DNA of 64,000 nt from Terriglobia bacterium (GCA_020073205.1 JAIQFR010000007.1:4073-68072), one strand, 5' to 3'; positions 105-16,777 are shown, counted from the first letter of the stretch. Notes: generated by a model from the sequence alone, not told the origin. Translations and numbers: made by a program.

Positions 105-195
105 GGCTGACCTCCGGTTCGAAATGCTGGTGGCAAGACCAGCAGGCGGCTCTGGCCCGAAATGGGCTAACCCGCGACATTGCCGGAGGTCAGCC
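105..195. repeat. 13-bp perfect inverted repeat (GGCTGACCTCCGG at 105..117 and CCGGAGGTCAGCC at 183..195) around an inner hairpin (GCTGGT-GGCAAG-ACCAGC) and a CGAAATG direct repeat. Lies between the IS110 transposase start and the higA stop
   Basis: Read directly from the sequence. Possibly the IS left-end structure or a remnant of the first attC of the array. Confidence 0.55.
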
Positions 196-221
196 TACTC
201 GGAAGCCGGAAGTCATACTGT

Positions 222-554
222 CTAGGTTGCTGGAAGTCCCTTCGAGAGACTGATGATTCGGGCGAGTTCCCGATTCGACGCACCGAGCGCGAGTAGAGAG
301 CGGATGAGAAGGTCAAGGGTCACCGAAGGATCACCGGCTTCCATCTTCGCGACGCGCGATTGGCTCGAGCGGACTCTCCGCGCGAGTTCCACCTGGGTCA
401 ACCGGCGGCGTCTCCGACGCGCTCGAAGCCCGTCGGCGAGTTTGAGCTTCAGTTCGATGTACGCGGCCTCCTCGGCCGACAGTTCCAGGAACTCCTTGGT
501 GCCGCCGACCTTCCAGCCTTTCGCCTCAAGGCGTTTCCTCTTATCCTCACGCAT
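222..554 (-). CDS. higA: HigA-type antitoxin, XRE-family HTH (start taken at internal Met MREDKRK...)
   Basis: HTH segment LTQVELARRVRSSQSRVAKMEAG. Lies immediately downstream of and overlapping the HigB-like toxin gene, giving toxin-first HigBA order. Confidence 0.8.
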   Translation of the reverse strand: MREDKRKRLEAKGWKVGGTKEFLELSAEEAAYIELKLKLADGLRARRRRRRLTQVELARRVRSSQSRVAKMEAGDPSVTLDLLIRSLLALGASNRELARIISLSKGLPAT

Positions 555-879
555 CGTCGTACTCCCGGAGCCGTCGCCTACAGACCTCGATGACCGCGGC
601 AGGCGTGGCGGTCGTCTTCTTGCTGAAGACGTCAACGATGACGATCGCGTCGGGGTCGATTCGGTAGACGATTCTCCACGTCACGTTGGCGTCGTTGATC
701 CTCAATTCATGGCAGCGGCGTGCAATCGTTGGCATCGGCCTCGAATGCGGCATCCCCAGCGACTCGCCCCGCTGCAACCTCCGAAGCAGAACGCCCGCTT
801 CGATCCTGGCTGGCTGGGAAAGAGGTGGTGTCTTGACTTCTCCGTGCAGCCAGACCAGGGGCTTGTCCGTCGAACTCAT
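547..879 (-). CDS. higB: HigB-like toxin of the RelE/ParE superfamily (gp49-like, COG4679)
   Basis: MSSTDKPLVWLHGEVKTPPLS...CHELRINDANVTWRIVYRIDPDAIVIVDVFSKKT matches the widespread HigB/gp49 family almost along its full length. Confidence 0.8.
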   Translation of the reverse strand: MSSTDKPLVWLHGEVKTPPLSQPARIEAGVLLRRLQRGESLGMPHSRPMPTIARRCHELRINDANVTWRIVYRIDPDAIVIVDVFSKKTTATPAAVIEVCRRRLREYDDA

Positions 880-936
880 TCGGGTGCAGTATATGTCGGC
901 AAGGACATATTGGCAAGTTGGTTCTGGAGGCCGGCA

Positions 937-1035
937 ACCTAACCGCGCGATTCAGCTGCCGGTCTGGGCTGTCACACCGCGTGCTTGCGCACGCGTCGCG
1001 CCGACCCATCCCGCAGCTGATCGCGGGCGTTGCCC
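937..1035 (+). other. attC-like site 1 (99 bp): inverse core ACCTAAC at 937, core GTTGCCC at 1029
   Basis: Imperfect palindrome with L''/L' arms CGCGAT-T-CAGCTGC and GCAGCTGATCGCG (one unpaired T) and central hairpin CGCGTGC-TTGC-GCACGCG. About 90% identical to site 3 over the central 60 bp. Confidence 0.6.
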
Positions 1036-1096
1036 GGCCAGAAGCGGGTGATCGACAACCTAGGCCCAGCGGGTGCTATCCTCGGGAATGATGGCT

Positions 1097-1378
1097 ATGC
1101 GATTCACATGGAGTCTCGAAAAGGCGACGGTCAATCGTAGAAAGCACGGCGTCCCCTTCGAAGAGGCCCTCACCGTGTTCGGGGATCCGCTCGCCCGTAT
1201 CCACGACGATCCCGCGCACTCCAAGACGGAGGGCCGCGAGATCATCGTCGGGCATTCCAGGCGCGGGCGTCTGATCTTGGTTTCCTTTTGCGAGCGGCGT
1301 GGGGCAGTCCGCCTCATCAGCGCTCGTCGAGTGACACGACATGAACGTGAAGACTACGAGAAAGGCACGCGGCGGTAG
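1097..1378 (+). CDS. brnT: BrnT toxin (DUF497 ribonuclease toxin)
   Basis: MRFTWSLEKATVNRRKHGVPFEEALTVFGDP is the BrnT signature. A GTG at 1073 is an alternative start. Confidence 0.8.
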   Translation: MRFTWSLEKATVNRRKHGVPFEEALTVFGDPLARIHDDPAHSKTEGREIIVGHSRRGRLILVSFCERRGAVRLISARRVTRHEREDYEKGTRR

Positions 1379-1598
1379 CAATGGCGTTCGAGCTGTGCGT
1401 GAGATCGAAAGCGAATATCGCTTCGACTATAGCGAGGCTCGGCCAAACCGCTTCGCCAGGAAGATGGCACGCGACGCAGTGGTCGTGGTCCTGGACGCTG
1501 ATGTCGCGAAAGTCTTCCGCGACTCGAAGCGAGTCAACTCGCTTCTTCGCGCGACCATCGCGGCGGTCGAAAAACGGCCATCGCGCCGGGCGGGCTAG
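1341..1598 (+). CDS. brnA: BrnA antitoxin
   Basis: Overlaps the brnT 3' end. The EYRFDYSEARPNRFARKM motif is typical of BrnA. Confidence 0.7.
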   Translation: MNVKTTRKARGGSNGVRAVREIESEYRFDYSEARPNRFARKMARDAVVVVLDADVAKVFRDSKRVNSLLRATIAAVEKRPSRRAG

Positions 1599-1692
1599 CC
1601 GGCTGAAGCTGCCGGTCCCCGCTGTCACGGGTCGTGCTTCCGCACGCCCCGCGCCAGCGTGGCCCGCAGCTTAGCCGGAACGTCTAGCCGGA
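1595..1692 (+). other. attC-like site 2 (degenerate; relative of sites 1 and 3 that lacks a clean AAC/GTT core)
   Basis: AGCTGCCGGTCcccgCTGTCACgggtcGTGCTTcCGCACGC...CCCGCAGCTT aligns with site 1. Outer arms GGCTAG and CTAGCC. Confidence 0.4.
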
Positions 1693-1759
1693 GCCGGGAA
1701 GCCAACCTACCCAAAGCAGCGGTCAGGACGTATCATCTGACGGCAAGGAGCGCCGATAG

Positions 1760-1966
1760 ATGATCTTCATCGTCGAACTTGAGCAGGAAACCGACGGCCG
1801 ATGGATCGCCGAAGTGCCTGACCTGCCAGGGGTTATGGCTTACGGCAGGTCGTCGGCCGATGCGACCGCGAAAGTGCAGGCACTCGCGCTGCGCGTAGTT
1901 GCAGAACGACTCGAGCATGGCGAAGCCGGTCCCGACCTCCTCACGATCACATTCAAGGCGGCATGA
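1760..1966 (+). CDS. hicB: HicB-family antitoxin (UPF0150)
   Basis: MIFIVELEQETDGRWIAEVPDLPGVMAYGRS fold signature. RBS AAGGAG upstream. Stop overlaps the hicA start. Confidence 0.7.
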   Translation: MIFIVELEQETDGRWIAEVPDLPGVMAYGRSSADATAKVQALALRVVAERLEHGEAGPDLLTITFKAA

Positions 1967-2175
1967 GCGAATGGCCGAGCACGCGAGCACGACGGGTGCT
2001 CGCTGCGCTGCTCCGAATCGGCTGGGAACAGAAACGGCAGTCAGGTTCGCACCGGACCTTGCGGCGCGATGGGTGGCCTGACTATGTGTTCGCCTTTCAT
2101 GACGACGAGGAATTGGGGCCACGGATGCTCGCGCGAATCGCGAAACGCACCGGCCTCCGCCCACAAGATCTGTAA
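1963..2175 (+). CDS. hicA: HicA toxin (YcfA-like mRNA interferase)
   Basis: RVLAALLRIGWEQKRQSGSHRTL: the GSH motif and size are typical of HicA. Confidence 0.8.
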   Translation: MSEWPSTRARRVLAALLRIGWEQKRQSGSHRTLRRDGWPDYVFAFHDDEELGPRMLARIAKRTGLRPQDL

Positions 2176-2203
2176 CTGAACGGTCGGGGAGATAGGTAAC
2201 ACT

Positions 2204-2383
2204 TTAGGCCGGGGACATGGGTGACACTGTTTTCCGGACCCACCTTCCCTTGTGATCCTCGATCCTGAGCTTCCGCTCGTCCATCCTCCCGAGCTTGATC
2301 GGCCCGAAGTATACGTCCCAAAGTCCGTCGTCCACTTCCTCGAGACCGACGTACTCGCCGGCGAGCGTGGTCGTCAGGAGATG
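2204..2383 (-). pseudogene. 59-codon C-terminal gene remnant with no start codon; begins right after an in-frame TGA
   Basis: Reverse-strand frame HLLTTTLAGEYVGLEEVDDGLWDVYFGPIKLGRMDERKLRIEDHKGRWVRKTVSPMSPA*. It lies inside the hicBA cassette before attC3. Identity not recognised; possibly a transposase or other gene fragment. Confidence 0.35.
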
Positions 2384-2411
2384 TCATGAAGTGTCATTCG
2401 AAAATGCGGCT

Positions 2412-2510
2412 GTCTAACTGGGCGCTCCAGTTGACGGTCTGGGCCGTCACGCCGCGTGCTTCCGCACGCGTCGCGCCGACCCATCCCGCAACTGAGCGCC
2501 GTCGTTGGGT
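2412..2510 (+). other. attC-like site 3 (99 bp): inverse core GTCTAAC at 2412, core GTTGGGT at 2504
   Basis: Both cores match the RYYYAAC / GTTRRRY consensus exactly. Arms GGCGCTC-C-AGTTG and CAACTGAGCGCC carry one extrahelical C. Outer CTGTC...GACAG. Confidence 0.65.
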
Positions 2511-2554
2511 CGACAGAACTTGACACGGGCGCCGAATATGCATATAGTACATAT

Positions 2555-2833
2555 ATGAGGGTTGTCTGGGATCCCGCGAAAGCGAAGGCGAACCAGCTGA
2601 AGCACGGCATTCGCTTCTCGGACGCGGAGGGTGTCCTCTACGATCCCATGGCACTCACCCGCGAGGACGAACGGAGCGAAGGCGAACCCCGGTTCATTTC
2701 GATCGGCATGGATCATCTGACTCGCGTCGTGGTCGTGGTCTTCATCCCACGTGGCGAATCGGCTCGACTCATCTCGGCGCGCCGCGCGTCGAGGAAGGAA
2801 CGGCACCAATATGCGCAAAGAATACGATTTTAG
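2555..2833 (+). CDS. brnT: BrnT toxin, second divergent copy
   Basis: MRVVWDPAKAKANQLKHGIRFSDAEGVLYDP. The ATG at 2555 lies 45 nt after the attC3 core. Confidence 0.8.
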   Translation: MRVVWDPAKAKANQLKHGIRFSDAEGVLYDPMALTREDERSEGEPRFISIGMDHLTRVVVVVFIPRGESARLISARRASRKERHQYAQRIRF

Positions 2834-3062
2834 CGGAGCCCGCCAGGGCGCCGTCATTAAGCAGCCCGGGAAGACCCGGATCACCATCTACCTCGACGAC
2901 GACGTGCTGCAGGCGTTCCGCGAGCGGGCTGACGAGACCGGACGAGGCTACCAGACGATGATCAACGACGCGCTTCGCGAGCACTTGGGCAAGACTCCGC
3001 AGCCACTCGATGCGCGAACCCTGCGTCGAATTCTCCGAGAGGAATTGCGAAGGACCGGTTGA
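2811..3062 (+). CDS. brnA: BrnA antitoxin, second copy
   Basis: MRKEYDFSGARQGAVIK...ITIYLDDDVLQAFRERADETGRGYQTMINDALREHL. Overlaps the brnT 3' end. Confidence 0.75.
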   Translation: MRKEYDFSGARQGAVIKQPGKTRITIYLDDDVLQAFRERADETGRGYQTMINDALREHLGKTPQPLDARTLRRILREELRRTG

Positions 3063-3075
3063 TTTGAGCCATGCG

Positions 3076-3169
3076 GCCCAACGCGCTGCAACTGCCAAGC
3101 GCGGCCGATACCGTGCGATGGAACAATGGCACGCTGGCCGCGCTTGCAGTTGAGCGCTATCCGTTCGAC
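3076..3169 (+). other. attC-like site 4: inverse core GCCCAAC at 3076, core GTTCGAC at 3163
   Basis: Arms GCGCT-G-CAACTGC-C-AAGCGC and GCGCTTGCAGTTGAGCGC with two unpaired bases. Begins 14 nt after the brnA stop and ends 27 nt before the next ATG. Confidence 0.6.
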
Positions 3170-3196
3170 AGACTCTGAGCGGAAAGAGGTGAAGGA

Positions 3197-3523
3197 ATGA
3201 AACGAAAGCTCCTGATCGCGGTCGTGACTGCCATAAGCGGCGCGGTCCTCGCAATGATGGGCTTCGTGCTTCTCGGCCGCGGCGACACTGCCGCCGCACA
3301 AGGAGTCGTGGTGAATGGCGGCCAGGCGTCCGGCCTAACAGGCGTTGGGCCAGACACGTCATCGCCCAACTGGAAGCTTCTGTCCGAAGACGTCGGTGTG
3401 ATGATCCGCAAAGACGACCGACTCGGTCTGCGTGGTCGGCTCTTCGTCCGTATCAATGACGCCTGGTTGCCGGTTGCCACCGACGGGCTGGCCGATGTGC
3501 TTGGGACCGTACCGGCACGGTGA
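3197..3523 (+). CDS. Small secreted or membrane-anchored hypothetical protein (cassette cargo)
   Basis: RBS GGAAAGAGGTGAAGGA precedes the ATG. N-terminal signal or TM segment MKRKLLIAVVTAISGAVLAMMGFVLL. Confidence 0.5.
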   Translation: MKRKLLIAVVTAISGAVLAMMGFVLLGRGDTAAAQGVVVNGGQASGLTGVGPDTSSPNWKLLSEDVGVMIRKDDRLGLRGRLFVRINDAWLPVATDGLADVLGTVPAR

Positions 3524-3665
3524 AGCGCATGCGAAGTGGCACGGAGGGCCGATCACGAGTCGGTGCGTTACAGCCTGCGCCTACTGCTCGAACAGGGCTG
3601 TGCGCGATGGGTTCAAGGCGCAGTCAACGGGTCGGGAGTTCGCCGTCGAACTACGCGTTCCAGCG

Positions 3666-3740
3666 GACGCATTCGCGCGTCACGCCCCGTGCGAAGCGCG
3701 GGTCGCGCCGCGCGGCCCGCGCCTGACGCGCGGCGTTCGA
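3666..3740 (+). other. attC-like site 5: inverse core GTCGAAC at 3666, core GTTCGAC at 3734
   Basis: The 7-bp cores are perfectly complementary. Inner arms CGCGCGTCACG and CTGACGCGCG. The next ORF starts 54 nt downstream. Confidence 0.45.
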
Positions 3741-3793
3741 CAGGCGGAAGAAACGCGAGTTGCCGAACATACGCCATTGGCGTATAGTAGGCT

Positions 3794-4111
3794 ATGCGCT
3801 TCGTTGAGCCCCCGGTCTTTACCAAGCGGGTGAAGGACCTGCTGCCAGACGAGGACTACAGGACCCTCCAGGTCGCCCTGCTCCTCCGTCCAGAGCAGGG
3901 GCCACTCATCAGGGGCGCTGGTGGACTTCGCAAGGTGCGCTGGGCCCCCAGAGGAGTCGGAAAGCGATGAGGCGTTCGAGTGATCTACGACTGGCGCCCC
4001 GATGAGCAAGTCTTCTACATGCTCTTCGCGTACGCCAAGACCGTCCAGGAGGACCTGACCCCGGATCAGCTTCGAGTCCTGGCTCGAACCGTCCGAGAGG
4101 AGTTCAAGTGA
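3794..4111 (+). pseudogene. higB: HigB-2/RelE-ParE-family toxin gene interrupted by an in-frame TGA at 3968..3970
   Basis: MRFVEPPVFTKRVKDLLPDEDYRTLQVALLLRPEQGPLIRGAGGLRKVRWAPRGVGKR*GVRVIYDWRPDEQVFYMLFAYAKTVQEDLTPDQLRVLARTVREEFK. The stop replaces the conserved Gly of the KRGG(V/A)RVIY motif (GGA to TGA). Confidence 0.65.
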
Positions 4112-4398
4112 AGCAGAGTGACTTCAGCGACCTCATCAAGAGCGTCCGGCAGGCAGGTCGAATCCGACGCAAGAAAATGCGCCCCAGCCGCGCGACGACT
4201 TTCAAGCCTGCGGATGTCAAGGCGATTCGCGGCAGCCTCGGGAAGTCGCAGACCGAATTCGCGATGATGATCGGGGTCAGCGTCGCGACCCTTCGCAACT
4301 GGGAACAGGGTCGGCGAGTCCCTGACGGACCTGCCCAGGCTTTGCTGCGGGTCGCAGCTCAGAATCCGGAAGCGGTCGCGCACGCGCTGGGTGCTTGA
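4108..4398 (+). CDS. higA: HigA-2-like HTH antitoxin (XRE family); GTG start overlaps the toxin stop (GTGA)
   Basis: SQTEFAMMIGVSVATLRNWEQGRRVPDGPAQALLRVAAQNPEAV, characteristic of antitoxins paired with HigB-2. Confidence 0.7.
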   Translation: MKQSDFSDLIKSVRQAGRIRRKKMRPSRATTFKPADVKAIRGSLGKSQTEFAMMIGVSVATLRNWEQGRRVPDGPAQALLRVAAQNPEAVAHALGA

Positions 4399-4424
4399 TT
4401 GGCGAGCGCGCTGTCGACCAGCGT

Positions 4425-4508
4425 GGTCAACCCGACGGTCCTCGCGTCACGGCGCTTGCGGGGCAAGCGCCGCGCCTCTCGGCCTGCGGGCTACCACCGG
4501 CGTTGGGC
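4425..4508 (+). other. attC-like site 6: inverse core GGTCAAC at 4425, core GTTGGGC at 4502
   Basis: Central perfect 9-bp stem GGCGCTTGC-gggg-GCAAGCGCC. Lies between the higA stop (4398) and the mrr ATG (4530). Confidence 0.5.
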
Positions 4509-4529
4509 AGACTAGTCGAAGAGGGAGCC

Positions 4530-5423
4530 ATGCCGAGAAAGCCTGATTCGGCGCCCGAGTTCGTGAGATTCGTCGGTCCGGTACTTGCCGCGCTCGAAGG
4601 ACTCGGCGGCTCCGGTCGCCCGGACGAGGTGCGCAGTGCAATTGCCAGGGCGCTAAGCATCTCTGAAGCCGAACAGGCTCTTCGGTTGCCGAGTGGCGTT
4701 CAGTCTCGTTTCGAGAATCAGGTCCACTGGGCACGGTTCTACCTGGCGAAAGGGGGATACATCGACGCGTCTCGTCATGGGGTATGGACTCTCACCGAGA
4801 AGGCACGCGCACTCGGGAGAGTCTCTCCTGCCCAGGGCCGGGAGATCTATCGCACCGTTGCAACTGAGTTTGGAAAGTCGGGCGTGAAGACATCAGCGCC
4901 AGAAGACGCGCAGGCCGGCGAGGAGCATGTGGCCCCCGCGACCGACGCTGAGCATACATTCATCAACTACAGGGAGTCGGTCGCGGCGAGTCTCCAGGGC
5001 CTTCCTGCGGCGGGGTTCGAACGTTTCTGCCAACGTCTTCTCCGCGAGTCCGGATTCGAGGAGGTCAGTGTGACCGGTCGATCTGGCGACGGTGGTATCG
5101 ACGGCATTGGCGTTTTGCAGGTGAACGCGCTCGTGAGTTTCAAGGTTCTGTTTCAATGCAAGCGCTACACAGGTTCGGTTACTCCAAGTCAGGTTCGTGA
5201 CTTCAGAGGTGCCATGATGGGCAGGGCCGACAAGGGCATCATGATCACCACCGGGTCATTCACGTCCGACGCCCGGAAGGAAGCCGTGCGTGACGGGGTC
5301 CCACCGATCGAGCTCGTCGACGGCGAGAAGCTCGTGAACATGCTCGAGCGGCTTGAGCTAGGCCTGAGACCGCGGCGGACGTTTGAAGTGGACGCGGCGT
5401 TCTTCGAGCAGTTCCGCAAGTGA
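4530..5423 (+). CDS. mrr: Mrr-family restriction endonuclease (N-terminal winged-helix Mrr_N plus C-terminal Mrr_cat nuclease)
   Basis: RBS GAAGAGGGAG. N-terminal EFVRFVGPVLAALEGLGGSGRPDEVRSAIA. C-terminal GIDGIGVLQ...FQCKRYTGSVTPSQVRDFRGAM...GIMITTGSFTSDARKEA restriction-endonuclease core. Confidence 0.8.
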   Translation: MPRKPDSAPEFVRFVGPVLAALEGLGGSGRPDEVRSAIARALSISEAEQALRLPSGVQSRFENQVHWARFYLAKGGYIDASRHGVWTLTEKARALGRVSPAQGREIYRTVATEFGKSGVKTSAPEDAQAGEEHVAPATDAEHTFINYRESVAASLQGLPAAGFERFCQRLLRESGFEEVSVTGRSGDGGIDGIGVLQVNALVSFKVLFQCKRYTGSVTPSQVRDFRGAMMGRADKGIMITTGSFTSDARKEAVRDGVPPIELVDGEKLVNMLERLELGLRPRRTFEVDAAFFEQFRK

Positions 5424-5492
5424 CAACGTCGCCCACGCCGTTACCGGTGACGGACCGCCGTGCGTCCCGCGCCTGACCGGCCGACGTTGCCG
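5422..5492 (+). other. attC-like site 7 (weaker): GACAACGTCG ... CGACGTTGCC arms, core GTTGCCG at 5486
   Basis: Imperfect palindrome starting at the mrr stop codon, with inner CGTTACCGGTGACG. The next ATG is 27 nt downstream. Confidence 0.4.
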
Positions 5493-5518
5493 CGGGCAGG
5501 TAATGCTGAGGAGAGATC

Positions 5519-5983
5519 ATGCCGCTTCAATTCGCGCCCGTTGCCCGCGCTGAAATGCTCATTCGCAGATCGGTGGCTGAGGTCTTCAACGCCTTCGTCG
5601 ATCCCGCCGTGACCCGCCGGTTCTGGTTCACGAGGGGCAGCGGGAGGCTCGAACAAGGCGCGCGTGTGAAGTGGTACTGGGACATGTACGGCGTGTCGGC
5701 CGACGTCGAAGTCAAGGCCATCGAAGTGAATCGTCGGATCTCGATCGACTGGCCGACACCTGTCGAGTGGATCTTCACCCCGCGGCCTGATGGCACCACT
5801 TACGTGAGTATCATCGCGTCGGGATTTGCCGGAAGTGACGACGAGAAAGTCGCCCAAGCCATCGATTCCATGGGGGGCTTCAGCTTGGCTCTCGCGGGTT
5901 GCAAGGCGTTCTTGGAACACGGCGTCGAGCTGAACCTCGTGGCGGATCACCGCCCCGATGCGCATGTCGCAGGCGGCGCCTGA
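5519..5983 (+). CDS. SRPBCC-superfamily protein (AHSA1/START-like)
   Basis: FVDPAVTRRFWFTRG...VKWYWDMYGVSADVEVKAIEVNRRISIDW pattern of activator-of-Hsp90-ATPase-like SRPBCC proteins. RBS GAGGAGAG. Confidence 0.65.
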   Translation: MPLQFAPVARAEMLIRRSVAEVFNAFVDPAVTRRFWFTRGSGRLEQGARVKWYWDMYGVSADVEVKAIEVNRRISIDWPTPVEWIFTPRPDGTTYVSIIASGFAGSDDEKVAQAIDSMGGFSLALAGCKAFLEHGVELNLVADHRPDAHVAGGA

Positions 5984-5984
5984 C

Positions 5985-6074
5985 ACGTAAAGCTGCGGTC
6001 CACGTTGTCACGGGGCGTGCTGGCGCACGACCCGTTCCCTCCTGGGCATTGGAAATTCTCAGGCACCGTTAAGC
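5985..6074 (+). other. attC-like site 8 (truncated relative of sites 1-3) ending in a perfect core GTTAAGC at 6068
   Basis: AGCTGCGGTCcacgttGTCACggggcGTGCTgGCGCACG aligns with sites 1-3. GTTAAGC fits GTTRRRY exactly. Confidence 0.4.
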
Positions 6075-6076
6075 AC

Positions 6077-6178
6077 CGAAGTCGGCAGGACAACCATCGG
6101 ATCGCATACCGGGTCGATGACGGCGAGGAATCGGTCACGATCATCGAGATCGGGGATCGCAAGGAAGTCGACCGATAG
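6077..6178 (+). pseudogene. 3' remnant (about 33 codons) of a RelE/ParE-family toxin gene, with no start codon
   Basis: ...HRIAYRVDDGEESVTIIEIGDRKEVDR* matches the C-terminal beta-strands of RelE/ParE toxins. Upstream in frame there is only attC sequence and a stop. Confidence 0.45.
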
Positions 6179-6229
6179 GCCTGCCGCCTCGCCCGGGGGT
6201 ATGATCGGCCACAAGGAGGCTCCTCCCTC

Positions 6230-8689
6230 GTGAGGCTCGCCGCCATCGCGCTCGGGTTCGCCGTCCTGCTGCCTGCGGAGGCGGCGACGGTCCAGGTGCT
6301 GGTGCGGGAGCGCGGCGGGGGACCGATCGCGAACCAGCGCGTCGTCATGCAGGTCCCCACGACCCCCGGCGATGTCACGCGTTGGAATCGGAGGCGGTTC
6401 CTCGCGGGCGTCACCGGAGAGGACGGCAAGGCCACGTTCGAATCGGTGCCGGTGGGGCGCTACGTGGTCCTCGTGCTGACGCTCGGCACGTCGGGGCTCA
6501 TCGATCCGGCTTCGAATCCGCTCGCCCCGCCCCCGCTGCTCACCGTCGCCTCGGAAGACGAGAAGGTGGCGGTGGAGATCGAGGTCTGGAGGGGAAGTCT
6601 TTTCCGCGGCGAAGAGGTAGTGGACCGCGGAGGCGTTCCTCACGCCAGGGTAATCCTGCGAGGCCTGGACGGGCAGCCCACGATGGAGTTCCCCCTCGAT
6701 GTCCTCGGACGGGCCGAGCGGCTCCTCGTGCCGGGCCGATGGGAGGCGGACCTAGTGGTTCCGCCGGGTTATCTGATCGTGGACGTCGTCTGGAACGGTG
6801 AATCGCTGCCGGGCCACACGGTCCGCTTCGACGTCAGGGAGGACCCGCGCCCGCAGATCGTGAGCTGGTACCTGAGCGCGTCGTGCCTCATCACCGGGCG
6901 CATGAGCGAAGCCAGCGGAAGATGTGTCGTCCCGGTGGTCGCGACGCTCGTTGAGCCCGGTCCCTGGATCGCCGCGGCGCTGGCGCGCGGTGGATCCACC
7001 TTCCAGGTGGTTCCCAACCAGGAATGGCCGGACCCCTGCGTGTACCGGCTCTGGCTGCCCGACGGCGAGTGGACCGTGCGCCCCCAGGGAGAGGACCTGC
7101 TCGTCTCGGAGCCCGAATCGGTCGACGTCGCGATGGTCCCCGGAGAGACCCGGAGCCTCGACTTCCTTCTCACGATGAAAGACCGCGACGAGCGCGACGG
7201 ACGCAAGCCGCTCGTCGTTCGAGTCCTGGCGCCGGACGGCCTGCCGCTCGCGGGGGCCGCCGTCGAGGTCTGGCCGCCGGGAGAGAGGAGCCTCTCGGCG
7301 GTCCCCCTCAGGACGGACGTCACCGGGAAATACGGCGGATCCGTCCGTTTCCGCGGGCTGGCGGCGGGGAGCTACAGGGTCGCCGCCGGTCGAGCCGATT
7401 TCCTCGAGGGGACCGCCGAGGCGCCGGACTACGACCCGAAGGCCGAGCACCCACCGGGCGTCGTGGTGACGCTGCGCGAGGGAGCCACGCTGCACGCCCG
7501 CGCGGTCGACGAGGAGGGCCGTCCGATTCGAGAGGTCGAGCTGAGCTACCTCCGACTGGGAGAGCTTCCCCGGACCGCGCTCGCCAACGAGGGGATCGCA
7601 TCGGCAAAGCGCTCCGGCACGGCCCTGTCGGATGCCACGGGGCACCTCGAGATCCCCGGTCTCTACTCGGGGGATTACCGGGTCGAGGCCCGCATGACCG
7701 GCGAGCAGAGCGCCGTCCGCTTCGTCGTTCTCAGGCAGGGGACCGCGAAGCACTCGAAGTCGATCGAGGTCCACCTCACCGAGCCGGCTCGCTCCGACGT
7801 GGACCTTCTCTTGCTGCCCGCTGCGAGTCTCACGGGGAGCCTCGCCTGCTCGGACCGGGGAACGATGCCGGCGACGGTCTCGTTCCGGATCTTCCCGGCG
7901 GGCTCGCCCATCGCGGACCTCTGGCAGAAGAAGGATCTCGAGGCGGGCGCGGTGAGCGCGCCGGACGACCTGGTTCTCGGCGGTGACGGACTGGACCGTT
8001 ACCGCCTGGGGCCCCTCGCCCACGGCGAGTACCTCCTCGCAGCTCGGCCCTCCGGCCAGGATTACTGGAGCTGGGCGTCGAACGGCCTCGTGCCGGAGGG
8101 GGCGGCAACGTACCCGGTCGAGGAGGCCTCGACGCTGGACACCGGGGTCGTCGAGATCGAATGCGGGCCGCTCCTGGCGGTCGTGCCGGAGATCCTGTCC
8201 AAGGAAGCCGTTCCCGATCTCCGCCTCGGCGCCGTGCGCGGCATCCTGCGTCCCGCCGCCGGGGTGAAGGGAATCAAGGACGTGGAGCCGGACGCCGAGA
8301 CGCATGCCGACCGCGCGTTCCTCCGGAGCCTGCCGGAGGGGAAGTTCCGGGCCGCGGTGACCGTGGAGCATCCCTACCTGGTGCCGTCGTCGGTCTCCGC
8401 CCCGGAGCAGAAGGTCGATCTCGCGCGAGGGAGGCTGGCCGAGATCCGAGTGACCTTCGAACGGCTCGGAGGTCTCGTGGACGTGCGAGGCATGGGGAAG
8501 GCCGCGCGCCTGACCGCAGGGGAGGGGAGCCCTTCGGTCCGGCCGCTCACGGACGGGAAGGCGCTCTTCCCCGGCACGCTGCCGGGGGCCTACCGAGTCG
8601 AGATGTGCGCCGATCCCGCGTGCTCCGCCGTGACCGCGACGTGGGAGCGCGTCGAGGTCATGGCGGGCAGAACCACGTTCGTTCATTGA
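6230..8689 (+). CDS. Large secreted protein built from carboxypeptidase-regulatory-like (prealbumin fold) domain repeats
   Basis: RBS AAGGAGG, GTG start. Signal peptide MRLAAIALGFAVLLPAEAAT. Recurrent G.V.D..G.P.AGA.V motifs of CarboxypepD_reg domains. Confidence 0.55.
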   Translation: MRLAAIALGFAVLLPAEAATVQVLVRERGGGPIANQRVVMQVPTTPGDVTRWNRRRFLAGVTGEDGKATFESVPVGRYVVLVLTLGTSGLIDPASNPLAPPPLLTVASEDEKVAVEIEVWRGSLFRGEEVVDRGGVPHARVILRGLDGQPTMEFPLDVLGRAERLLVPGRWEADLVVPPGYLIVDVVWNGESLPGHTVRFDVREDPRPQIVSWYLSASCLITGRMSEASGRCVVPVVATLVEPGPWIAAALARGGSTFQVVPNQEWPDPCVYRLWLPDGEWTVRPQGEDLLVSEPESVDVAMVPGETRSLDFLLTMKDRDERDGRKPLVVRVLAPDGLPLAGAAVEVWPPGERSLSAVPLRTDVTGKYGGSVRFRGLAAGSYRVAAGRADFLEGTAEAPDYDPKAEHPPGVVVTLREGATLHARAVDEEGRPIREVELSYLRLGELPRTALANEGIASAKRSGTALSDATGHLEIPGLYSGDYRVEARMTGEQSAVRFVVLRQGTAKHSKSIEVHLTEPARSDVDLLLLPAASLTGSLACSDRGTMPATVSFRIFPAGSPIADLWQKKDLEAGAVSAPDDLVLGGDGLDRYRLGPLAHGEYLLAARPSGQDYWSWASNGLVPEGAATYPVEEASTLDTGVVEIECGPLLAVVPEILSKEAVPDLRLGAVRGILRPAAGVKGIKDVEPDAETHADRAFLRSLPEGKFRAAVTVEHPYLVPSSVSAPEQKVDLARGRLAEIRVTFERLGGLVDVRGMGKAARLTAGEGSPSVRPLTDGKALFPGTLPGAYRVEMCADPACSAVTATWERVEVMAGRTTFVH

Positions 8690-8781
8690 GAGTCCGGAAG
8701 CGGGCCCGGCGCCTCACGCGTCGAGTGCGCGGGCGGCACCGGGACCCACGGGCCACGAAGCAATCGGGCCAAGAACGCCGC

Positions 8782-9171
8782 CTACATCCTGGAGCAGTCG
8801 CAGCGCAGCTGGCCCTTCGCGACCCGCCCCGAGTGTATCGGGAGATTCTCGGCGGTCCATTCCGCCCAGCCCGCGTTCATCTCCTTGCAGAAGAAACCCT
8901 TCTCTGCCAACTGCAGAGCCGCTCTCGCGCTGGCCTGTCAGGTGTCGCTCCAGCAGTAGGTGACCAGCTCCTGATCTCTCGGACGCTGGGCGGCCAGCGA
9001 GTCGATCTCGTCCAGGGGCGCGGAAAGCGCGCCACGCGAACCGGACCGTGCCGGACGCGGCGAGCCGGCCGGCACGGCCCACCGGCGTCTGACGATTTCG
9101 TCATCGGCGCGACGCGATCGTAACGGCAAGGTCGTCCGCGGGCACTCGGGGCGGGCCGGGCTCAAGGGCAC
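8782..9171 (-). CDS. Rhodanese-like ORF with an in-frame TGA (8938..8940) in the active-site loop; candidate Sec-rhodanese or a pseudogene. Coordinates approximate (+/-1)
   Basis: Reverse-strand frame ...GSRGALSAPLDEIDSLAAQRPRDQELVTYCWSDT-TGA-QASARAALQLAEKGFFCKEMNAGWAEWTAENLPI... resembles rhodanese GHIPGAxNxP...vvvYC, with the [C/U]xxGxR loop and the GG..aW motif. Confidence 0.3.
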
Positions 9172-9193
9172 GTCTCCTGCACGCGATCACGGC

Positions 9194-9859
9194 ATGGACG
9201 AGGCGTTCTGCCCGGTCTGCTGCACGCAGCATGGCAACCCGGTCGACTGCCCGGGCGAGCTGCGAGCGACGGGGCCGGAGCGGCACGGTTGGGCGATGGC
9301 GGTGGATGCGCCGAGGGGCGTCGACCTCTGCGGGGTGATCGTGGCGCCGAGCGAGACGCGGTGGCGGGCGCGGATCGTGACCTACCCCCTCGCGCCGTGG
9401 CGCACCCCAGGGTGCAGCGGCGTGCTGAAGTTCGTGGGCTCCACGGAGGAAGAGGCCCAGGCGAAGGCCCTTGATTTCATTCGGCGCTGGTGCTCGGAGC
9501 GGAACCGCGCACCGCACGACGGCTTCGGCCGCTGGGAGCGACGGGAGGGCGCGATCGCGGGCCGCCCCCCGCCGCGAAGGCGCCGGTCCCATTCGATCCG
9601 CTATCGCGTGGGAGGGATCTCCACCCTCACCACCACCGCGAACCTCTCGCCGGAGGGGATGTTCCTGACCGCGCCGGAGCCGCCGGCGGTGGATACACCC
9701 CTGGAACTCGAGATCGAGATCTTCGGCTGCATCGCGACGCTTCGTGGCGTCGTCGTCTGGAGACGGGATCGGCTGCAGCCGGGCCGGCCGCGCGGGATGG
9801 GCGTGCGCCTGCTGGATCCGCCCCCCGTGTACAAAATGTTCGTGCAAGGGCTGAAGTAG
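9194..9859 (+). CDS. PilZ-domain protein with an N-terminal Cys cluster
   Basis: C-terminal RRRSHSIR (RxxxR) and NLSPEGMF (D/NxSxxG) c-di-GMP-binding motifs, then the PilZ beta-barrel ...ELEIEIFGCIATLRGVVVWRR. Confidence 0.55.
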   Translation: MDEAFCPVCCTQHGNPVDCPGELRATGPERHGWAMAVDAPRGVDLCGVIVAPSETRWRARIVTYPLAPWRTPGCSGVLKFVGSTEEEAQAKALDFIRRWCSERNRAPHDGFGRWERREGAIAGRPPPRRRRSHSIRYRVGGISTLTTTANLSPEGMFLTAPEPPAVDTPLELEIEIFGCIATLRGVVVWRRDRLQPGRPRGMGVRLLDPPPVYKMFVQGLK

Positions 9860-9969
9860 CTCGCCGACGGCGCCGCTCCCGGTGAGAGCTCTCCCGCCCG
9901 CCCGGGATCTCGATTCCACCGCGGATTCGACAGCGGCGGTGATACGCTGCGCGCGAGGAGGAGGGGACC

Positions 9970-10974
9970 ATGAGGACCTCGAGCGCCATCGCTCTCGGAC
10001 TCTGCCTGCTCGCGGTGCTCGGTTGCGCCCGCGGGGACGGGGCGGCCGCGCCTGCGCCCGCGAGCGGCGTCTATCCGGTCGACGAGGCGTTCGTCGACGC
10101 GGGCGGAGTCCTGATCTACACGGTCTCGATGGGCCGAGGCGCGCCGCTCCTGATCCTCCACGGCGGTCCCGGCGCCTCCCACGACTACTTCCTGCCGTAC
10201 CTGCTGCCCCTGGCCCGCCACAACCGGCTGGTGTTCGTCGACGAGCGGGGCTCGGGAAAGTCCGAGAAGCTGGAGGACGTCAAGCAGTACACGGTCGAGG
10301 CGATGGTCGAGGACGTCGAGGCGGTGCGCAAGGCGCTCGGCCTCGGCCGGATCAACCTGCTCGGGCACTCGTTCGGGGGGGTGCTGGCGCAGGCGTACGC
10401 GCTGAAGTACCAGGACAACCTGTCGCGCCTCGTGCTCTGCAGCACGTTCCACACCACGAAGGGGCTCAACGAGATCTTCCGCCGGATGAAGGCGGGCATG
10501 GCGCCGGGGTTGCGCTCGCGCATCGACAGGCTGGAGGCGGAGGGGCTCTACGGGCACGGCAAGGACTACGAGAAGAACCGCTACACCAGCGAGTACATGA
10601 TCGCCGCCTGGGGCGAAGGGTACTTCCCGTACCTCTACCAGAACCGGCCCGATCCCAACTTCGAGCCGACCCAGACGGGCAACAACGCGTGGGACCTGTA
10701 CCGGGAGATGTGGGGCTCTCACGGCGAATTCGTCATCGACGGGAACCTGGTCTCGGTGGAGTACGCCGACCGGCTGGGATCGATCAAGGTGCCGACGCTG
10801 ATCACGGTCGGCGACCACGACGAGTCCGACCCGTCGCTCTCCCGCGACATGCAGGGGAGGATCCCGGGCTCGCGGCTCGTGATCCTGCCGAAGAGCGGGC
10901 ACATGACCTTCGTCGACCAGCCCGCGATGTTCAATCGCGCGGTGGACGAGTTCCTCAACCCTGCCGCGAGGTGA
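9970..10974 (+). CDS. Alpha/beta-hydrolase lipoprotein of the proline-iminopeptidase family
   Basis: Lipobox LAVLGC. HGGPGASHDY...GHSFGG (nucleophile elbow GxSxG)...VGDHDES. Confidence 0.8.
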   Translation: MRTSSAIALGLCLLAVLGCARGDGAAAPAPASGVYPVDEAFVDAGGVLIYTVSMGRGAPLLILHGGPGASHDYFLPYLLPLARHNRLVFVDERGSGKSEKLEDVKQYTVEAMVEDVEAVRKALGLGRINLLGHSFGGVLAQAYALKYQDNLSRLVLCSTFHTTKGLNEIFRRMKAGMAPGLRSRIDRLEAEGLYGHGKDYEKNRYTSEYMIAAWGEGYFPYLYQNRPDPNFEPTQTGNNAWDLYREMWGSHGEFVIDGNLVSVEYADRLGSIKVPTLITVGDHDESDPSLSRDMQGRIPGSRLVILPKSGHMTFVDQPAMFNRAVDEFLNPAAR

Positions 10975-11095
10975 GACGGCCCCGCCGATAGGCTCGTCCG
11001 CCTACGCCCCGAGAGTGGCAGGGGCCCACCCGCCAGCGTAAGCTTTTCGCGGGTCGGCACGGACGGTACAACCCTTTCGAGGAGGAGGATCTCCC

Positions 11096-14000
11096 ATGCG
11101 ATCGTGCACTCCGCGCGGTCTGTTGACGATATCGACGGCAGCCTGTCTTCTCCTGGCTTCGCTCCCCACGGGCGCGGCGGTTCCGACCGGCCGCAAGGGG
11201 GGCGAGTTGAACAAGCGCGCGACCGGCGAGACCGCGGCCTCGGTCGACGCGAGAGAGCCGGCGAGCGGCGCCAGGAGCTACGTGCTCTTCGACGGCTCCA
11301 CGGCCACCCTCGGGGCCGACGGCTTCGGCTCGCGCAGGGACGTCCGCGGCGGCGTCCGGCCCGTGTTCGTAGAGAGACCCCGCGGGCACTCCGCGATGGG
11401 CGGCGGCTGGGGGCCGGACGATCGCTCGATCATCCGGAGACTCTCGATCCCGGATCGCGGCCGCTACGTGCCGGGCGAGGTGATCGTCGTCCTCGAGAGC
11501 GGCGTCGCGAGGTCCCTCGCGGGCACGGCCGGGACCTCGAAGCAGGCTCTCATGACGGGTGATCCGGCGGTCGATGCGACGCTGCGCGACGCGGGGGCCG
11601 TCGGCGCGCGGCCGCTGGCCCCCTCGCTGCTCTCGGGGCCGGTCGGCGGTGGGCGCGCTCGAGCTCTCGCGAGGGGGGACCTCTCCCACGCGTGGGTCGT
11701 CCGGCTGAAGGGGGTCGACGCCAGGGTCGCGGCGCGCCGCCTCCGGGACGCGCCCGGCGTCCTGTACGCCAGCCCGAACTGGACGGTCTCGTCGATGGCG
11801 GGCGAACCGCGACCGATTCCCTCGTGGCTGCCGAGTAGACGCCACGGCACGACTTTGCAGGTGGGGGAACTGCCCTCAGGGGCCTCCGGCTCGGGCTCCT
11901 CCTCCGCGCCGTCCTCCACGCTGCCGACGAACTACGGACTGGCCCTCTCGCTCCAGAGCCACCTCAACGGCAACGGGGTGAACGCCGTCGGGGCGTTCGA
12001 CATCCTGTCCCGCCGTTTCGGCAAGCTTCCCGGCGAGGGCGTGATCGTGACCAACGTCTCGATCGGGGACCTCACCGACCAGTCCATGGCGGACGCGGGG
12101 GATTCGTACGTGCAGTTCTTCGGCCCGACGACCGTGGAGATCGGCGGCCAGCGCTACCTCGACGTCCCGTCGATGCCGCTCATCCCGGCGTGGGGCGCCG
12201 CCCTCGACGGGACGCTCGATCCGCTGGCCACGGTCGAGCAGGTCGACCCGTACTTGAGCGAGGTCCTGCTCGACTTCGCGGTCATGGCGCCGCTTCCCCA
12301 CGACCGGCAGCGTCCGGGCGCCCAAGGCGACGGCGCGACCGACCTGCTCGGCATCGCGCCGGGGGCGCAGTATCGCCTCGTGGTGCCGGACGATCCGACG
12401 ATCGCGAACATTCTCGCCGCCCTCGTCGCCGCGGCCAACCAGGAGCCTCGGCCGGACGTAATCACGGCGAGCCTCGGATTCGGCTTCGACGTCAACGGAT
12501 TCCCGGGCCGTTACCTCGAGGACGACCCGCTGGTGCGGGCCGCGGTCCGGTCCATCGTTCACGACCTCGGCATCGTGGTCTGCATCGCGGCCAACGACGG
12601 CACGCGCCTCTACACTCCGGCGGCCGTCGGTCCCGACGGAGGCAGCGCCCCCACCGACCTCGCCGCCCCGGGCACGACCCCTACGACCGTGGACCAGGTG
12701 GCGTTCTCCACGGCGCCGTCGCGCCTCGACGACAGCGGCGCGATCGACGTGGGCGGGTCGACGCTCGACGACGTGCTCAGCGCTCCCCCCCAGGTGAGCG
12801 GCCCGCTCGCCGCGGTGGGCTCTTTCCCCGAGACGCGGCTGAACGGCGGGACGTTCTTCTCGTCGGGATTCGGCTCTCGGGTCAACCTCGCCGCTCCGAG
12901 CGACAACATCCCGGCGTTCGTGCACTCCTGCAACGGCTCGACCTGCCCCGCGAACGCGGTGATCCCGGTCTTGAACGGCGGAACCTCGGCCTCGACCCCG
13001 ATGGTCGCCGCGGCGGCCGCGGTCGCCATCGAGAGCCTGCGCCTCGCGGGACGGACCGCCACTCCCCAGAGCGTTCGCGATCTCCTGGTGGGCACCGGCC
13101 GCGCCTTGCCCAACCCGCCGCAGGTTGCGACCCCTCTCGCCGTCGGCCGCCAGATCGACGTGACCGCTGCGGTGGAGTCGGCTCTCGGACGCGAGAGCGC
13201 TCCGTCGATCGTCCGGTTGGGGGTGGCGCACCGGCAGGCATTCAGCGACCTGGGGGCCACCTTCGTCGAGGCGACGGACCCGGCGGCCATCGATCTCGAA
13301 GGTCCGCCGGTCGACTTCGCACCACCTTCAGGACAGAACCTCACCGGACCGATCACGATCGCGCCCGACATCGTCGCGAGGGGCGCCGCCCCGAGCGCCA
13401 CGTACGCGCTCACGATCGGCGCGAAGACCTTCACGCGGAGCGATCCGGTCTTCAGGATGCGACCGGCCCAGATCCTCGCCGCGGCGGGTCTCGGCGTCGT
13501 CTCCGCCTCGCCGCGCACCGTGCCCCTCGTCTACGAGATCCGGAGCGGCAGGCAAGTCCTCGCCTCGACGTCCCTCGCGCTCACCTTCGGTCCGAGCGAC
13601 GGCACGTACTCCGAGGCTCTACCGCCCATCGGCCCCAGCGTCGTCTCCCCGGGAAAGCCGTTCAAGGTGAGCTACGACCTGGCCCACGTGCGCCAGGTCG
13701 TCAAGCCGCAGCTCGTCGTATCGTCCATCGATCACTGGAGCCCCGCCGCCGCGCCGCTGTTCCGCAACGAGCGGGTCATCCCGATCAGCGCGAACGACAC
13801 CCAGGTCACGATCCCGGCGGACGCGTTCACGGGCGGGGCGGGGATCTACGGCCTCGGGATCCAGCAGGATTCGGAAGGCGGCGCCTACGGCTGGTTCACG
13901 ACCGTGCGCGTCGGCGGCGCCGCGGGCGAGACCCGGCCTCCCGCGCCCGTGCTGACCGTCGACGGCGGCGCCCCGGGCTACAGCGAGGGGGTCACCCGGG

Positions 14001-16349: not shown

Positions 16350-16504
16350 CCCTGGCCGTTGGGCCGTCCCGAGGGCCGCGCGGTTGTGGATCCCCAACAT
16401 CCAGTCGCCGCCGGTCGATTCACGGGGCGGAACGCGCGCGGTACGTTCGTGGCGTCGCCGGGAGGCTCCGCAACGAGCCTCTCGCACTCGAGAGGAGAGA
16501 CGCC

Positions 16505-16777
16505 ATGAGAAGGAACTCGATTTGGCTCGTGACCGCAGCGCTACTGCTGGCCGCGGCGGCCTCCGTGGTCGCGCTCGCGGGGTTCGGAGACAACGGCGGG
16601 GGGCAGGTGTTCGACGTCATCAGGAATCCCCCCGGCGGGAGCGGCTGCATCTGCCCGGCCAACTGGGACCCCGTCGTCTGCAGGGCCCAGGACGGCTCGG
16701 CCCACTACTTCTCGAACCTGTGCGTTGCGGGGTGCTACGGCTACACCTCCTGCGCCCGGGTGATCATCTCCCAGTAG
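16505..16777 (+). CDS. Small secreted Kazal-type protease-inhibitor-like protein
   Basis: RBS GAGAGGAGAGA. Signal peptide MRRNSIWLVTAALLLAAAASVVALA. CICPANWDPVVCRAQDGSAHYFSNLCVAGCYGYTSC fits the Kazal Cys spacing (PVC..DG..Y.N.C...C). Confidence 0.5.
   Translation: MRRNSIWLVTAALLLAAAASVVALAGFGDNGGGQVFDVIRNPPGGSGCICPANWDPVVCRAQDGSAHYFSNLCVAGCYGYTSCARVIISQ

Follow-up and report, generated by a model that had tools for sequence, protein, structure and literature searches.

A probable integron gene cassette array rich in toxin-antitoxin pairs in an uncultured member of the Acidobacteriia (Terriglobia)

Extent and composition of the array

A stretch of 64,000 nucleotides from a Terriglobia bacterium (GCA_020073205.1, JAIQFR010000007.1:4073-68072), referred to here in its entirety as the window, carries at its left end a run of small genes interspersed with imperfect palindromes that resemble attC, the recombination sites of integrons. 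With a probability of about 0.85, positions 224-6180 are the distal two thirds of an integron gene cassette array of about 10.5 kb in an uncultured Acidobacteriia (Terriglobia) host. In a composite with a left extension, where positions to the left of the window carry negative numbers, the whole array spans from about -4290 to 6180 and contains about ten attC sites and about 11 cassettes with both ends in view, the cargo being mostly toxin-antitoxin (TA) pairs. All sites lie on the plus strand and share one direction, and they are located at cassette boundaries, each coming after a unit of one or two genes. A first-pass annotation of the sequence alone had already described an integron-type cassette array, and this description is borne out by the folds, by covariation, by local and reciprocal covariance models and by the complementarity of cassette starts.

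The guanine and cytosine (GC) content of the whole window is 69%, with 58-65% across the array (-4471 to roughly 6000) compared with 66-71% on either side; at the right end it steps from 0.62-0.63 to 0.68 at about position 6000. The array is a clear but ordinary example of a known element type and leaves the current understanding of integrons unchanged. Arrays of this sort have already been reported across many phyla by IntegronFinder-based surveys, and integrons in the soil phylum Acidobacteria are known mainly from automated surveys. What is added here is a well-resolved Acidobacteriia cassette array that is documented at both ends, together with an insertion sequence (IS) lineage directed at the attC core, which is the most interesting by-product of the analysis.

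Following established integron biology, the bottom strand of each attC site would fold into an imperfect hairpin, which the integrase IntI would recognise and cleave at the conserved AAC of the R' box. The cassette would then leave as a circle and reinsert elsewhere. Without a local integrase the array would be a relic or would be serviced in trans; its probable origin is either a sedentary chromosomal integron, of which it would be a stranded remnant, or a cassette set mobilised in trans.

Anatomy of the attC sites

An attC site starts with an inverse core R'' (RYYYAAC) at its 5' side and ends with a core R' (GTTRRRY) at its 3' side, of which the AAC and GTT triplets are invariant; it has extrahelical bases, typically two, on the '' arm, a variable centre and a length of roughly 57-141 bp. 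The sites of the array are listed below with their scores in two covariance models, R1, which was built from the local sites, and R2, which was built from 25 sites of three other loci only (L064, L034 and L011). Fold z-scores refer to bottom-strand single-stranded DNA compared with 200 dinucleotide shuffles.

-3692 to -3596, plus strand: attC S-2, GCTAAC...GTTAGAC; R1 77 bits; fold z -7.45
-1365 to -1281, with its last four bases (AGGT) at 224-227, plus strand: attC S0; R1 93 bits, R2 59 bits
224-227, plus strand: AGGT, the 3' part of the S0 R' core GTTAGGT and the start of the higBA cassette
937-1035, plus strand: attC S1 of the higBA cassette; R'' ACCTAAC (937-943), R' GTTGCCC (1029-1035); R1 92.5 bits, R2 66.3 bits; z -5.3
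about 1592-1688, plus strand: attC-like S2 with the non-canonical R boxes GCGGGCT and GTCTAGC; R1 93.7 bits, R2 64.4 bits; z -7.0
2412-2510, plus strand: attC S3; R'' GTCTAAC, R' GTTGGGT; R1 102 bits, R2 80 bits; z -6.5
3076-3169, plus strand: attC S4; R'' GCCCAAC, R' GTTCGAC; R1 63 bits, no R2 match; z -5.0
3645-3741, plus strand: attC S5; R'' GTCGAAC and R' GTTCGAC, which are perfect complements; R1 59-60 bits, R2 28 bits; z -2.5
4425-4508, plus strand: attC S6; R'' GGTCAAC, R' GTTGGGC; R1 83 bits, R2 48 bits; z -2.4; same subtype as S0
5421-5492, plus strand: short attC S7; R'' TGACAAC overlaps the mrr stop codon, R' GTTGCCG; R1 25-28 bits (E 0.003-0.008), no R2 match; z -2.1
5985-6047, plus strand: S8, the left half and centre of an attC of the S1/S2/S3 type with the right half deleted, a member of the direct-repeat family D9; R1 partial match to model positions 20-69 (E 0.1); z -0.1

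S1-S7 are imperfect palindromes of 72-105 bp and S8 is a truncated copy, the set covering 931-6047. AAC and GTT are found at the stem bases of S-2, S1 and S3-S7, as is the GTT of the S0 R' box after removal of the insertion sequence that splits it; outside the triplets, the remaining four bases often fail to fit RYYY and RRRY. S1 has an overlapping alternative inverse core (CGGCAAC, 932-938), the '' arm of S5 carries a side hairpin, and S7 is the weakest of the complete sites. S1 and S3 share 81% identity over 112 nt, and each of them shares 72% identity with S2 over 74 nt.

The first-pass annotation had counted eight attC-like sites, each with AAC and GTT cores. This count stands for S1-S7, but only the left half of S8 is present, fused to a ParE remnant, and the cores are missing from S2. 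The core GTTAAGC given at 6068 is not a core site, because S8 is truncated before that point. The other positions given for the cores are correct except those of S5, where the inverse core starts at 3645 and not at 3666 and the core at 3735 and not at 3734.

Folding, covariation and cassette starts

Bottom-strand folding had been proposed as a check on these sites, and it separates them into strong and weak hairpins. S1-S4 fold better than 200 of 200 shuffles (z -5.0 to -7.0), and together with S-2 and S0 they fall in the range of -5 to -7.5; the folds of S5-S7 are weaker (z -2.1 to -2.5), and S8 shows no fold above its shuffles (z -0.1). A second scan folded every AAC...GTT pair lying 45-135 nt apart in the window, which gave 450 candidates. 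When these are ranked by energy density, S5, S4, S1 and S3 are among the top nine and S6 is 13th. Three AAC...GTT hairpins outside the array (41290-41377, 60136-60247 and 17982-18060) are among the top 11 of the same ranking; they have no attC-model match and may be terminators or chance pairings.

The stems are maintained by paired changes. When the eight local sites are aligned as one family, 19 of the 31 consensus stem pairs keep pairing through two-sided changes. For the 25 sites from L064, L034 and L011, 88% of the alignment cells are paired, compared with 30-39% when the partners are slid, and 23 of the 31 pairs covary. The predicted folds place two single-base bulges on the bottom-strand '' arm of S0 (G, C), S1 (A, C), S3 (T, G) and S4 (G, C), 6-8 nt apart (7 nt in S1, 6 nt in S3 and 8 nt in S4), and one bulged C on the '' arm of S2. 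In these predictions the identities of the bulged bases differ from the canonical T and G.

Since the crossover falls at G|TT, a gene cassette classically begins with a sequence complementary to its own inverse core. The higBA cassette start is complementary to its own R'' at seven of seven positions, and at 12 of 13 when the comparison is extended (reverse complement of 931-943). The same holds for the cassette of the putative secreted protein and the R'' of S5 (7/7), and the start of the second brnTA cassette (GTTGGGT) matches the R'' of S4 at six of seven positions.

Covariance models and related arrays in other genomes

R1 matches only the local sites in the window, the next best match outside the array having an E-value of 0.14 with filters off. 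Over the other 58 kb of the window nothing falls below E 0.1, again with filters off, and 4 kb of the left flank contain no members of the palindrome family; the D9 repeats are likewise confined to the array region. The palindromes are therefore not scattered in the remaining 58 kb and the 4 kb to the left; scattering throughout the genome is what the first-pass annotation had named as evidence against an integron. Scores on the plus strand are far above those on the minus strand (102 compared with 44 bits for S3), which shows that the sites are polar and point in the same direction, as had been claimed from the sequence. The reciprocal model R2 recovers S3, S1, S2, S6 and S5 in the window and S0 just to the left of it, all on the plus strand, and it has no other match in the window. 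The training sites of R2 were chosen by R1 and both models descend from the local sites, so that the forward and reciprocal tests are not fully independent.

The HigB toxin of the first cassette was used to reach related arrays. Among 333 HigB relatives confirmed in a genome collection, 80 loci with 65-80% identity from many phyla were kept, in which R1 found 72 matches. These are strongly clustered and lie nearly all on the strand opposite higB, as in the window. Same-strand arrays were found in L011 (17 matches), L017, L031, L034, L042, L064 and L014, and R1 matches lie to either side of higBA in three loci (L011, L017 and L034) and to one side of it in at least seven others, with the same antisense layout.

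Two of these arrays adjoin integrase genes. A tblastn search with IntI1 detected integrase genes beside HigB homologs in L074, L035, L017 and L064, as well as a short C-terminal match in L008. The NCBIfam model TIGR02249, with a cutoff of 265 bits, assigned 444 bits to L074, 459 bits to L035 and 363 bits to L064. L064 is a gammaproteobacterial chromosome in which an array at 5525-14339 (minus strand) lies beside a divergent intI at 16455-17279. About 55 residues are deleted inside this gene, corresponding roughly to 209-263 of IntI1, the region of the IntI-specific insertion. In L017, an Acidobacteriota metagenome-assembled genome (MAG; CAZUGP010000056), an array at 7223-10742 (minus strand) adjoins a frameshifted IntI homolog at 11603-12549, which is 46-56% identical to IntI1 and is transcribed toward the array. 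Both integrase genes that adjoin this attC family, in L064 and L017, are damaged.

The L017 integron shares with the window the attC subtype (82 bits in R1), a homologous antisense higBA (HigB 74% identical) and the GTTAGGTTGCT junction next to higA, and it differs in the adjacent frameshifted IntI homolog and in its other cassettes. A search of the JGI metagenomes with the attC-core pattern returned four short contigs with small same-strand arrays and without intI. Anatomy, position and cross-genome models all support the conclusion that the palindromes behave as attC sites. As the higBA cassette and one attC subtype are common to arrays in Gammaproteobacteria and other phyla, the comparison also bears on the range over which cassettes travel.

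Left boundary and search for an integrase

The left extension was obtained by contig walking, in which contigs carrying exactly the proteins of the window were collected and then the proteins on those contigs were used in turn. This added 8.5 kb leftward with overlaps that were 97.7-100% identical, giving a composite of 72.5 kb; NCBI assigns the exactly matching proteins to an Acidobacteriia (Terriglobia) metagenome-assembled genome. Apart from S-2, S0 and two insertion sequences, the extension holds the following features:

-8471 to -5577: two M16-type peptidase genes, the left one cut off; Pfam M16 for the right one only
-5532 to -4975: RibD_C protein
-4987 to -4622: open reading frame (ORF) of 121 aa
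-4287 to -3919, minus strand: IS630 transposase gene, C-terminal third
-3920 to -3693: ORF of 75 codons, possibly truncated
-3521 to -2941: phd-parE pair

The left end of the array is thus a truncated IS630 transposase gene beside housekeeping-type genes such as the M16 peptidase. Two contigs from two samples agree in placing the M16 peptidase, RibD_C and 121-aa genes directly to the left of the IS630 fragment. The array looks truncated at its left end by an IS630-associated event, and the spot where attI and the cassette promoter Pc would lie is occupied by the IS630 fragment. Conservation of attI does not extend from one integron class to another. In the JGI metagenomes there was no exact match to a 36-mer taken at the left end of contig L004.

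No integrase had been seen in the window by the first-pass annotation, which had suggested a search for intI further left. The 8.5 kb walked in that direction contain no detectable intI, and the absence now extends to the 72.5 kb composite, where tblastn with IntI1, the only IntI search made of the composite, gave nothing below E 0.7; the same query gives 1e-71 to 1e-90 at control loci. The scope of this absence is 8.5 kb to the left and 58 kb to the right of the array.

A set of clustered attC sites without an integron-integrase (CALIN) is defined by two or more attC sites on the same strand, less than 4 kb from one to the next, and by the lack of an intI nearby (PMC4889954). Here S-2, S0 and S1-S7 are all on the plus strand, and the largest gaps, from S-2 to S0 and from S0 to S1, are about 2.2 kb each, the left side being taken from metagenome contigs. 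The array is operationally a CALIN, a label favoured over that of the distal part of an integron because the array ends at an IS630 fragment beside M16 genes and no IntI homolog is found in 72.5 kb. The evidence thus favours one of the two possibilities that had been left standing at first.

Alternative explanations

A number of observations weigh against the reading as an integron cassette array with both ends in view. The class assignment of the attC sites comes from home-built models and not from the attC model of IntegronFinder, and R2 has no match at S4 and S7, the latter being weak in R1 as well (E about 0.005). The anatomy is incomplete at several sites: S2 is without the conserved triplets (GCGGGCT and GTCTAGC), S8 is truncated, and the R'' box of S0 is unrecognisable where an insertion sequence abuts. 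S5-S7 have no clear bulged bases in the predicted folds, so that the extrahelical bases claimed from the sequence hold for S0, S1, S3 and S4 with two each and for S2 with one. Complementarity of the cassette start beyond GTT is seen in only three of seven testable cassettes, the others sharing only the invariant GTT and one further base. A putative site S-1 after parE was rejected, as its two segments fold with z 0.2 and z -2.7 and neither R1 nor R2 has a match there. As to the boundary, a single metagenome contig of 2.5 kb (L095) crosses the IS630 fragment, so the left boundary depends on it, and in the NCBI genome bin RibD_C is found only on contigs of 13 kb or less, with IS#1, the insertion sequence at the left end of the window, and phd on a contig of 77 kb. 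Another contig, L089, gives a different left junction: 24 nt into the transposase gene of IS#2, the second insertion sequence of the same type, it switches (L089 2211 onward) to a KdpA fragment, an esterase, an FG-GAP protein, transketolase and PGI at 55-63% GC. This contig was set aside as a left boundary and judged to be probably a chimeric assembly at an IS, with a real alternative junction as the other possibility.

The best surviving alternative, which is nevertheless unlikely, is that a complete sedentary chromosomal integron is present, of which the array forms the distal segment; its intI and attI would then lie farther off or would have been separated by an IS-mediated rearrangement, and a resident integrase would still act on the cassettes. 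A rearrangement or deletion would be consistent with the truncated IS630 gene next to the 75-codon ORF, which may itself be truncated, and three different IS elements are present. The contigs covering the left junction are short, and the NCBI genome bin seems to be interrupted at this point. In complete genomes, roughly half of all CALINs also share their replicon with an IntI encoded at another place (PMC4889954). These points are opposed by the lack of any detectable IntI homolog or pseudogene over 8.5 kb to the left and 58 kb to the right, and by the two contigs from two samples that agree on the genes left of the IS630 fragment. Little recent integrase activity is furthermore suggested by the degraded sites S2 and S8 and by two toxin genes that are dead.

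Decay is seen in the array. Lacking both AAC and GTT, S2 is probably dead and no longer recombinogenic despite its strong stem; half of S8 is deleted, two toxin genes are dead (a relE-type gene and a parE remnant), S0 is split by an IS, and the IS630 fragment cuts the left end. The state of S2, S8, the relE-type gene, the parE remnant and S0 argues for little recent recombination. The TA cassettes with promoters of their own probably stabilise the array against loss; higBA, being antisense to the array, is necessarily self-promoted.

That the palindromes have nothing to do with integrons and are generic repetitive extragenic palindromic (REP) elements or the intrinsic terminators of a genome rich in GC is highly improbable and largely refuted. 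They are GC-rich hairpins located 3' of genes, and ISPa11, a member of the IS1111 group, does target REP sequences (PMC11187229). Yet no such palindromes occur in the other 58 kb or in 4 kb of the left flank, no T-run follows the stems as read from the sequence, AAC and GTT cores lie at the stem base with bulges on one arm only, and the model scores depend strongly on the strand. The same model moreover picks out arrays adjoining integron-integrase genes in other phyla, and cassette starts complement their own inverse cores. Just as improbable is a TA and defence island that was built otherwise, for instance by IS-mediated accretion, with the palindromes as remnants of miniature transposable elements: many TA modules, three IS families and a GC content below the surroundings would suit it, but the repeats have no terminal inverted repeats and no target duplications of their own, are found once for each cassette and in one orientation, covary as hairpins instead of being conserved in sequence, and contain the IS elements rather than sitting inside them.

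IS1111-type insertions at an attC site

Site S0 is flanked by two insertion sequences, IS#1 and IS#2, which are located as follows:

-1280 to 223, minus strand: IS#1, IS1111-type, 1504 bp (left end of the window, 1-223; L004 4870-6373); NCBIfam IS110 family RNA-guided transposase, 259 bits
-2721 to -1366: IS#2, IS1111-type, with a transposase of 347 aa (L004 6459-7814); NCBIfam transpos_IS110, 199 bits

The window starts 37 codons into the transposase gene of IS#1, and the whole of IS#1 is present on L004 and L090; the first-pass statement that the window begins inside an IS110 element agrees with the NCBIfam match of 259 bits. In IS1111 elements the inverted repeats are subterminal, and the longer of the non-coding regions lies downstream of the transposase gene tnp (PMC11187229). 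Both elements show this layout together with a DEDD transposase of the IS110 type. IS#1 has the subterminal inverted repeats ATGACTTCC and GGAAGTCAT, with 119 nt of non-coding sequence upstream and 272 nt downstream of tnp, and IS#2 has the repeats CTCATCAA and TTGATGAG, which at 8 bp are shorter than the usual 11-13, with 83 nt upstream and 229 nt downstream.

In S0, the R' core is interrupted by IS#1 as GTT|AGGT, and IS#2 abuts the stem base on the R'' side. Removal of IS#1 by the published 7/3 terminal-extension rule restores ACCT|AAC at S0 and GCCT|AAC in L105 on the bottom strand, and the junction GGAAGTCAT-ATC|AACG is identical in L004, L103 and L105. A previous placement of the insertion, 2 nt outside a GTTGCTG core, was replaced by GTT|AGGT after comparison with L103 and L105. 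Among relatives with transposases 79-84% identical to that of IS#1, an R1 attC match starts exactly at the right end of the IS, on the opposite strand, in L103/L104, L105-107 and L102, as it does for IS#1 itself in L004. Four of the five relatives examined sit at an attC detected by the model; the fifth, L101, is without a model match but has an attC-like sequence after the IS. Independent copies are therefore found at the same position and in the same orientation relative to attC.

Some IS1111 members target one end of attC sites (PMC11187229), and the insertion pattern of IS#1, as judged from these junctions, matches this published behaviour. The attC-targeting insertion is independent evidence that the palindromes form a recognised functional class. 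Compared with ISKpn4, ISPst6 and ISPa25 (PMC11187229), IS#1 has the same DEDD transposase, subterminal repeats, long downstream non-coding region and fixed orientation at the attC end, and its relatives are found at the same junction in other arrays. It differs in that its hosts are environmental and probably Acidobacteriota, and its transposase is at most about 56% identical to plasmid-borne IS110-family genes in PLSDB. The relatives of IS#1 comprise 7,999 IS110-family proteins at E <= 1e-30, with at least 119 clusters of 75-89% identity among the matches listed. Members of the IS1111 group that target attC, such as ISKpn4, ISPst6 and ISPa25, were reportedly described by Tetu and Holmes in 2008 and by Post and Hall in 2009.

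It is conceivable, and proposed here only tentatively, that IS#1 represents an unnamed RNA-guided IS1111-type lineage which is abundant in environmental metagenomes and homes to the GTT|AGGY core of attC in non-proteobacterial arrays. If this were true, such elements could offer a general way for chromosomal integrons to lose recombination sites and turn into stranded CALINs, and the attC subtype common to Acidobacteriota and Gammaproteobacteria would mark a cassette pool that crosses phyla. The IS1111-type insertion in the crossover core is a case of an attC-targeting IS outside the clinical Proteobacteria and a natural example of an RNA-guided transposase aimed at a structured recombination site. 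A comparison of the IS non-coding regions with the target gave guide-like matches of 7 nt per IS, plus 8 nt inside the terminal repeat of IS#1 itself, which are unconvincing in DNA of 69% GC.

The right end of S2 (AGCCGGAAC-GTCTAGCC; 1592-1688) resembles the IS#1 terminus joined to its flank (AGCCGGAAGTCATACTGTCTAGG; 201-226). This may be a coincidence or the footprint of an old IS insertion.

Cassette cargo

The genes between S0 and the right end of the array are as follows:

222-557, minus strand: higA-like helix-turn-helix (HTH) antitoxin, Pfam HTH_31, HTH_3 and HTH_37; cassette antisense to the array
547-879, minus strand: toxin of the HigB/Gp49 family, Pfam Gp49 1.9e-12
1094-1378, plus strand: brnT, Pfam BrnT_toxin 2.2e-21
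1341-1598, plus strand: brnA-like gene, no Pfam match
1760-1966, plus strand: hicB, weak HicB-like match of 1e-3, below the Pfam cutoff
1963-2175, plus strand: hicA, Pfam HicA_toxin 1.7e-12
2204-2335, minus strand: ORF of 43 codons between hicA and S3, no Pfam match
2555-2833, plus strand: second brnT, Pfam BrnT_toxin 1.5e-27
2811-3062, plus strand: second brnA, Pfam BrnA_antitoxin 2.6e-13
3197-3523, plus strand: putative secreted protein of 108 aa with an N-terminal hydrophobic segment as read from the translation; no Pfam or PADLOC match
3794-4111, plus strand: toxin pseudogene of the RelE/HigB type with an in-frame TGA at 3968-3970; Pfam RelE 4e-5 on read-through, below the cutoff
4108-4398, plus strand: HTH antitoxin (higA2), Pfam HTH_3 1.7e-10
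4530-5423, plus strand: Mrr-type restriction endonuclease (type IV, methyl-directed), Pfam Mrr_cat 9.5e-32 and Mrr_N 6.2e-22, PADLOC mREase_IV 7.8e-27
5519-5983, plus strand: protein of the SRPBCC/AHSA1 family, Pfam AHSA1 3.2e-9
6005-6178, plus strand: C-terminal remnant of a ParE toxin, Pfam ParE_toxin 3.8e-4 over profile positions 59-87 only, below the cutoff

Pfam and PADLOC agree with most of the gene functions first read from the sequence, but they give no family to the first brnA-like gene or to the secreted protein, and the matches of HicB and the ParE remnant stay below the Pfam cutoffs. The gene that had been called a HigB pseudogene is indeed damaged; the cause is an in-frame TGA and not a frameshift, and its match to the RelE family is below the Pfam cutoff. 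It is split into the same ORFs of 58 and 43 residues in contigs L002 and L004, and the cognate antitoxin is intact. The stop codon of higA spans the junction with IS#1. A possible origin of the ORF at 2204-2335 as a C-terminal transposase remnant was dropped for want of family support.

It had also been stated that every operon ends within 0-15 nt of a palindrome. This is the case for brnA1, brnA2, mrr and the SRPBCC gene; the distance is 26 nt for higA2, 121 nt for the secreted protein and 236 nt for hicA, and in the antisense higBA unit about 57 nt separate the start codon from the attC. The ParE remnant forms the distal (right) end of the array, and the next gene, at 6230-8689, is chromosomal and of high GC content.

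Relation to CALINs and sedentary chromosomal integrons

The array resembles the CALINs of complete genomes (Cury et al. 2016, PMC4889954) in that at least nine attC sites share a strand at spacings below 4 kb, no intI lies nearby, the cargo is not antibiotic resistance and IS elements occur. It differs from them in its number of sites (about ten here, with fewer than six attC in 83% of CALINs) and in that its host is an Acidobacteriia MAG and not a finished genome, the sites being classed by home-built models. Sedentary chromosomal integrons, such as the Vibrio superintegron and those of Xanthomonas, are likewise chromosomal, with attC sites that partly form one sequence family, abundant TA cassettes of which some are antisense, and cargo mostly of unknown or accessory function. 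In contrast to these, the present array is short, has no intI, attI or Pc in view and contains several decayed sites and genes.

Other features of the window

The gene content to the right of the array suggests an ordinary chromosomal region. Large proteins with CarboxypepD_reg (transthyretin-like) repeats are encoded at 6230-8689 and 38410-42696, the first of which borders the array directly, and the region also holds TPR proteins, a possible subtilase and a DEAD-box helicase. An ORF of 1814 aa at 22227-27668 has no Pfam match; inside it, direct repeats recur about every 200 nt at 25.8-27.3 kb. A Kelch-repeat (beta-propeller) protein of 1146 aa is encoded at 51002-54439, where 12-13 tandem DNA units of about 150 nt each extend from 52.0 to 54.0 kb.

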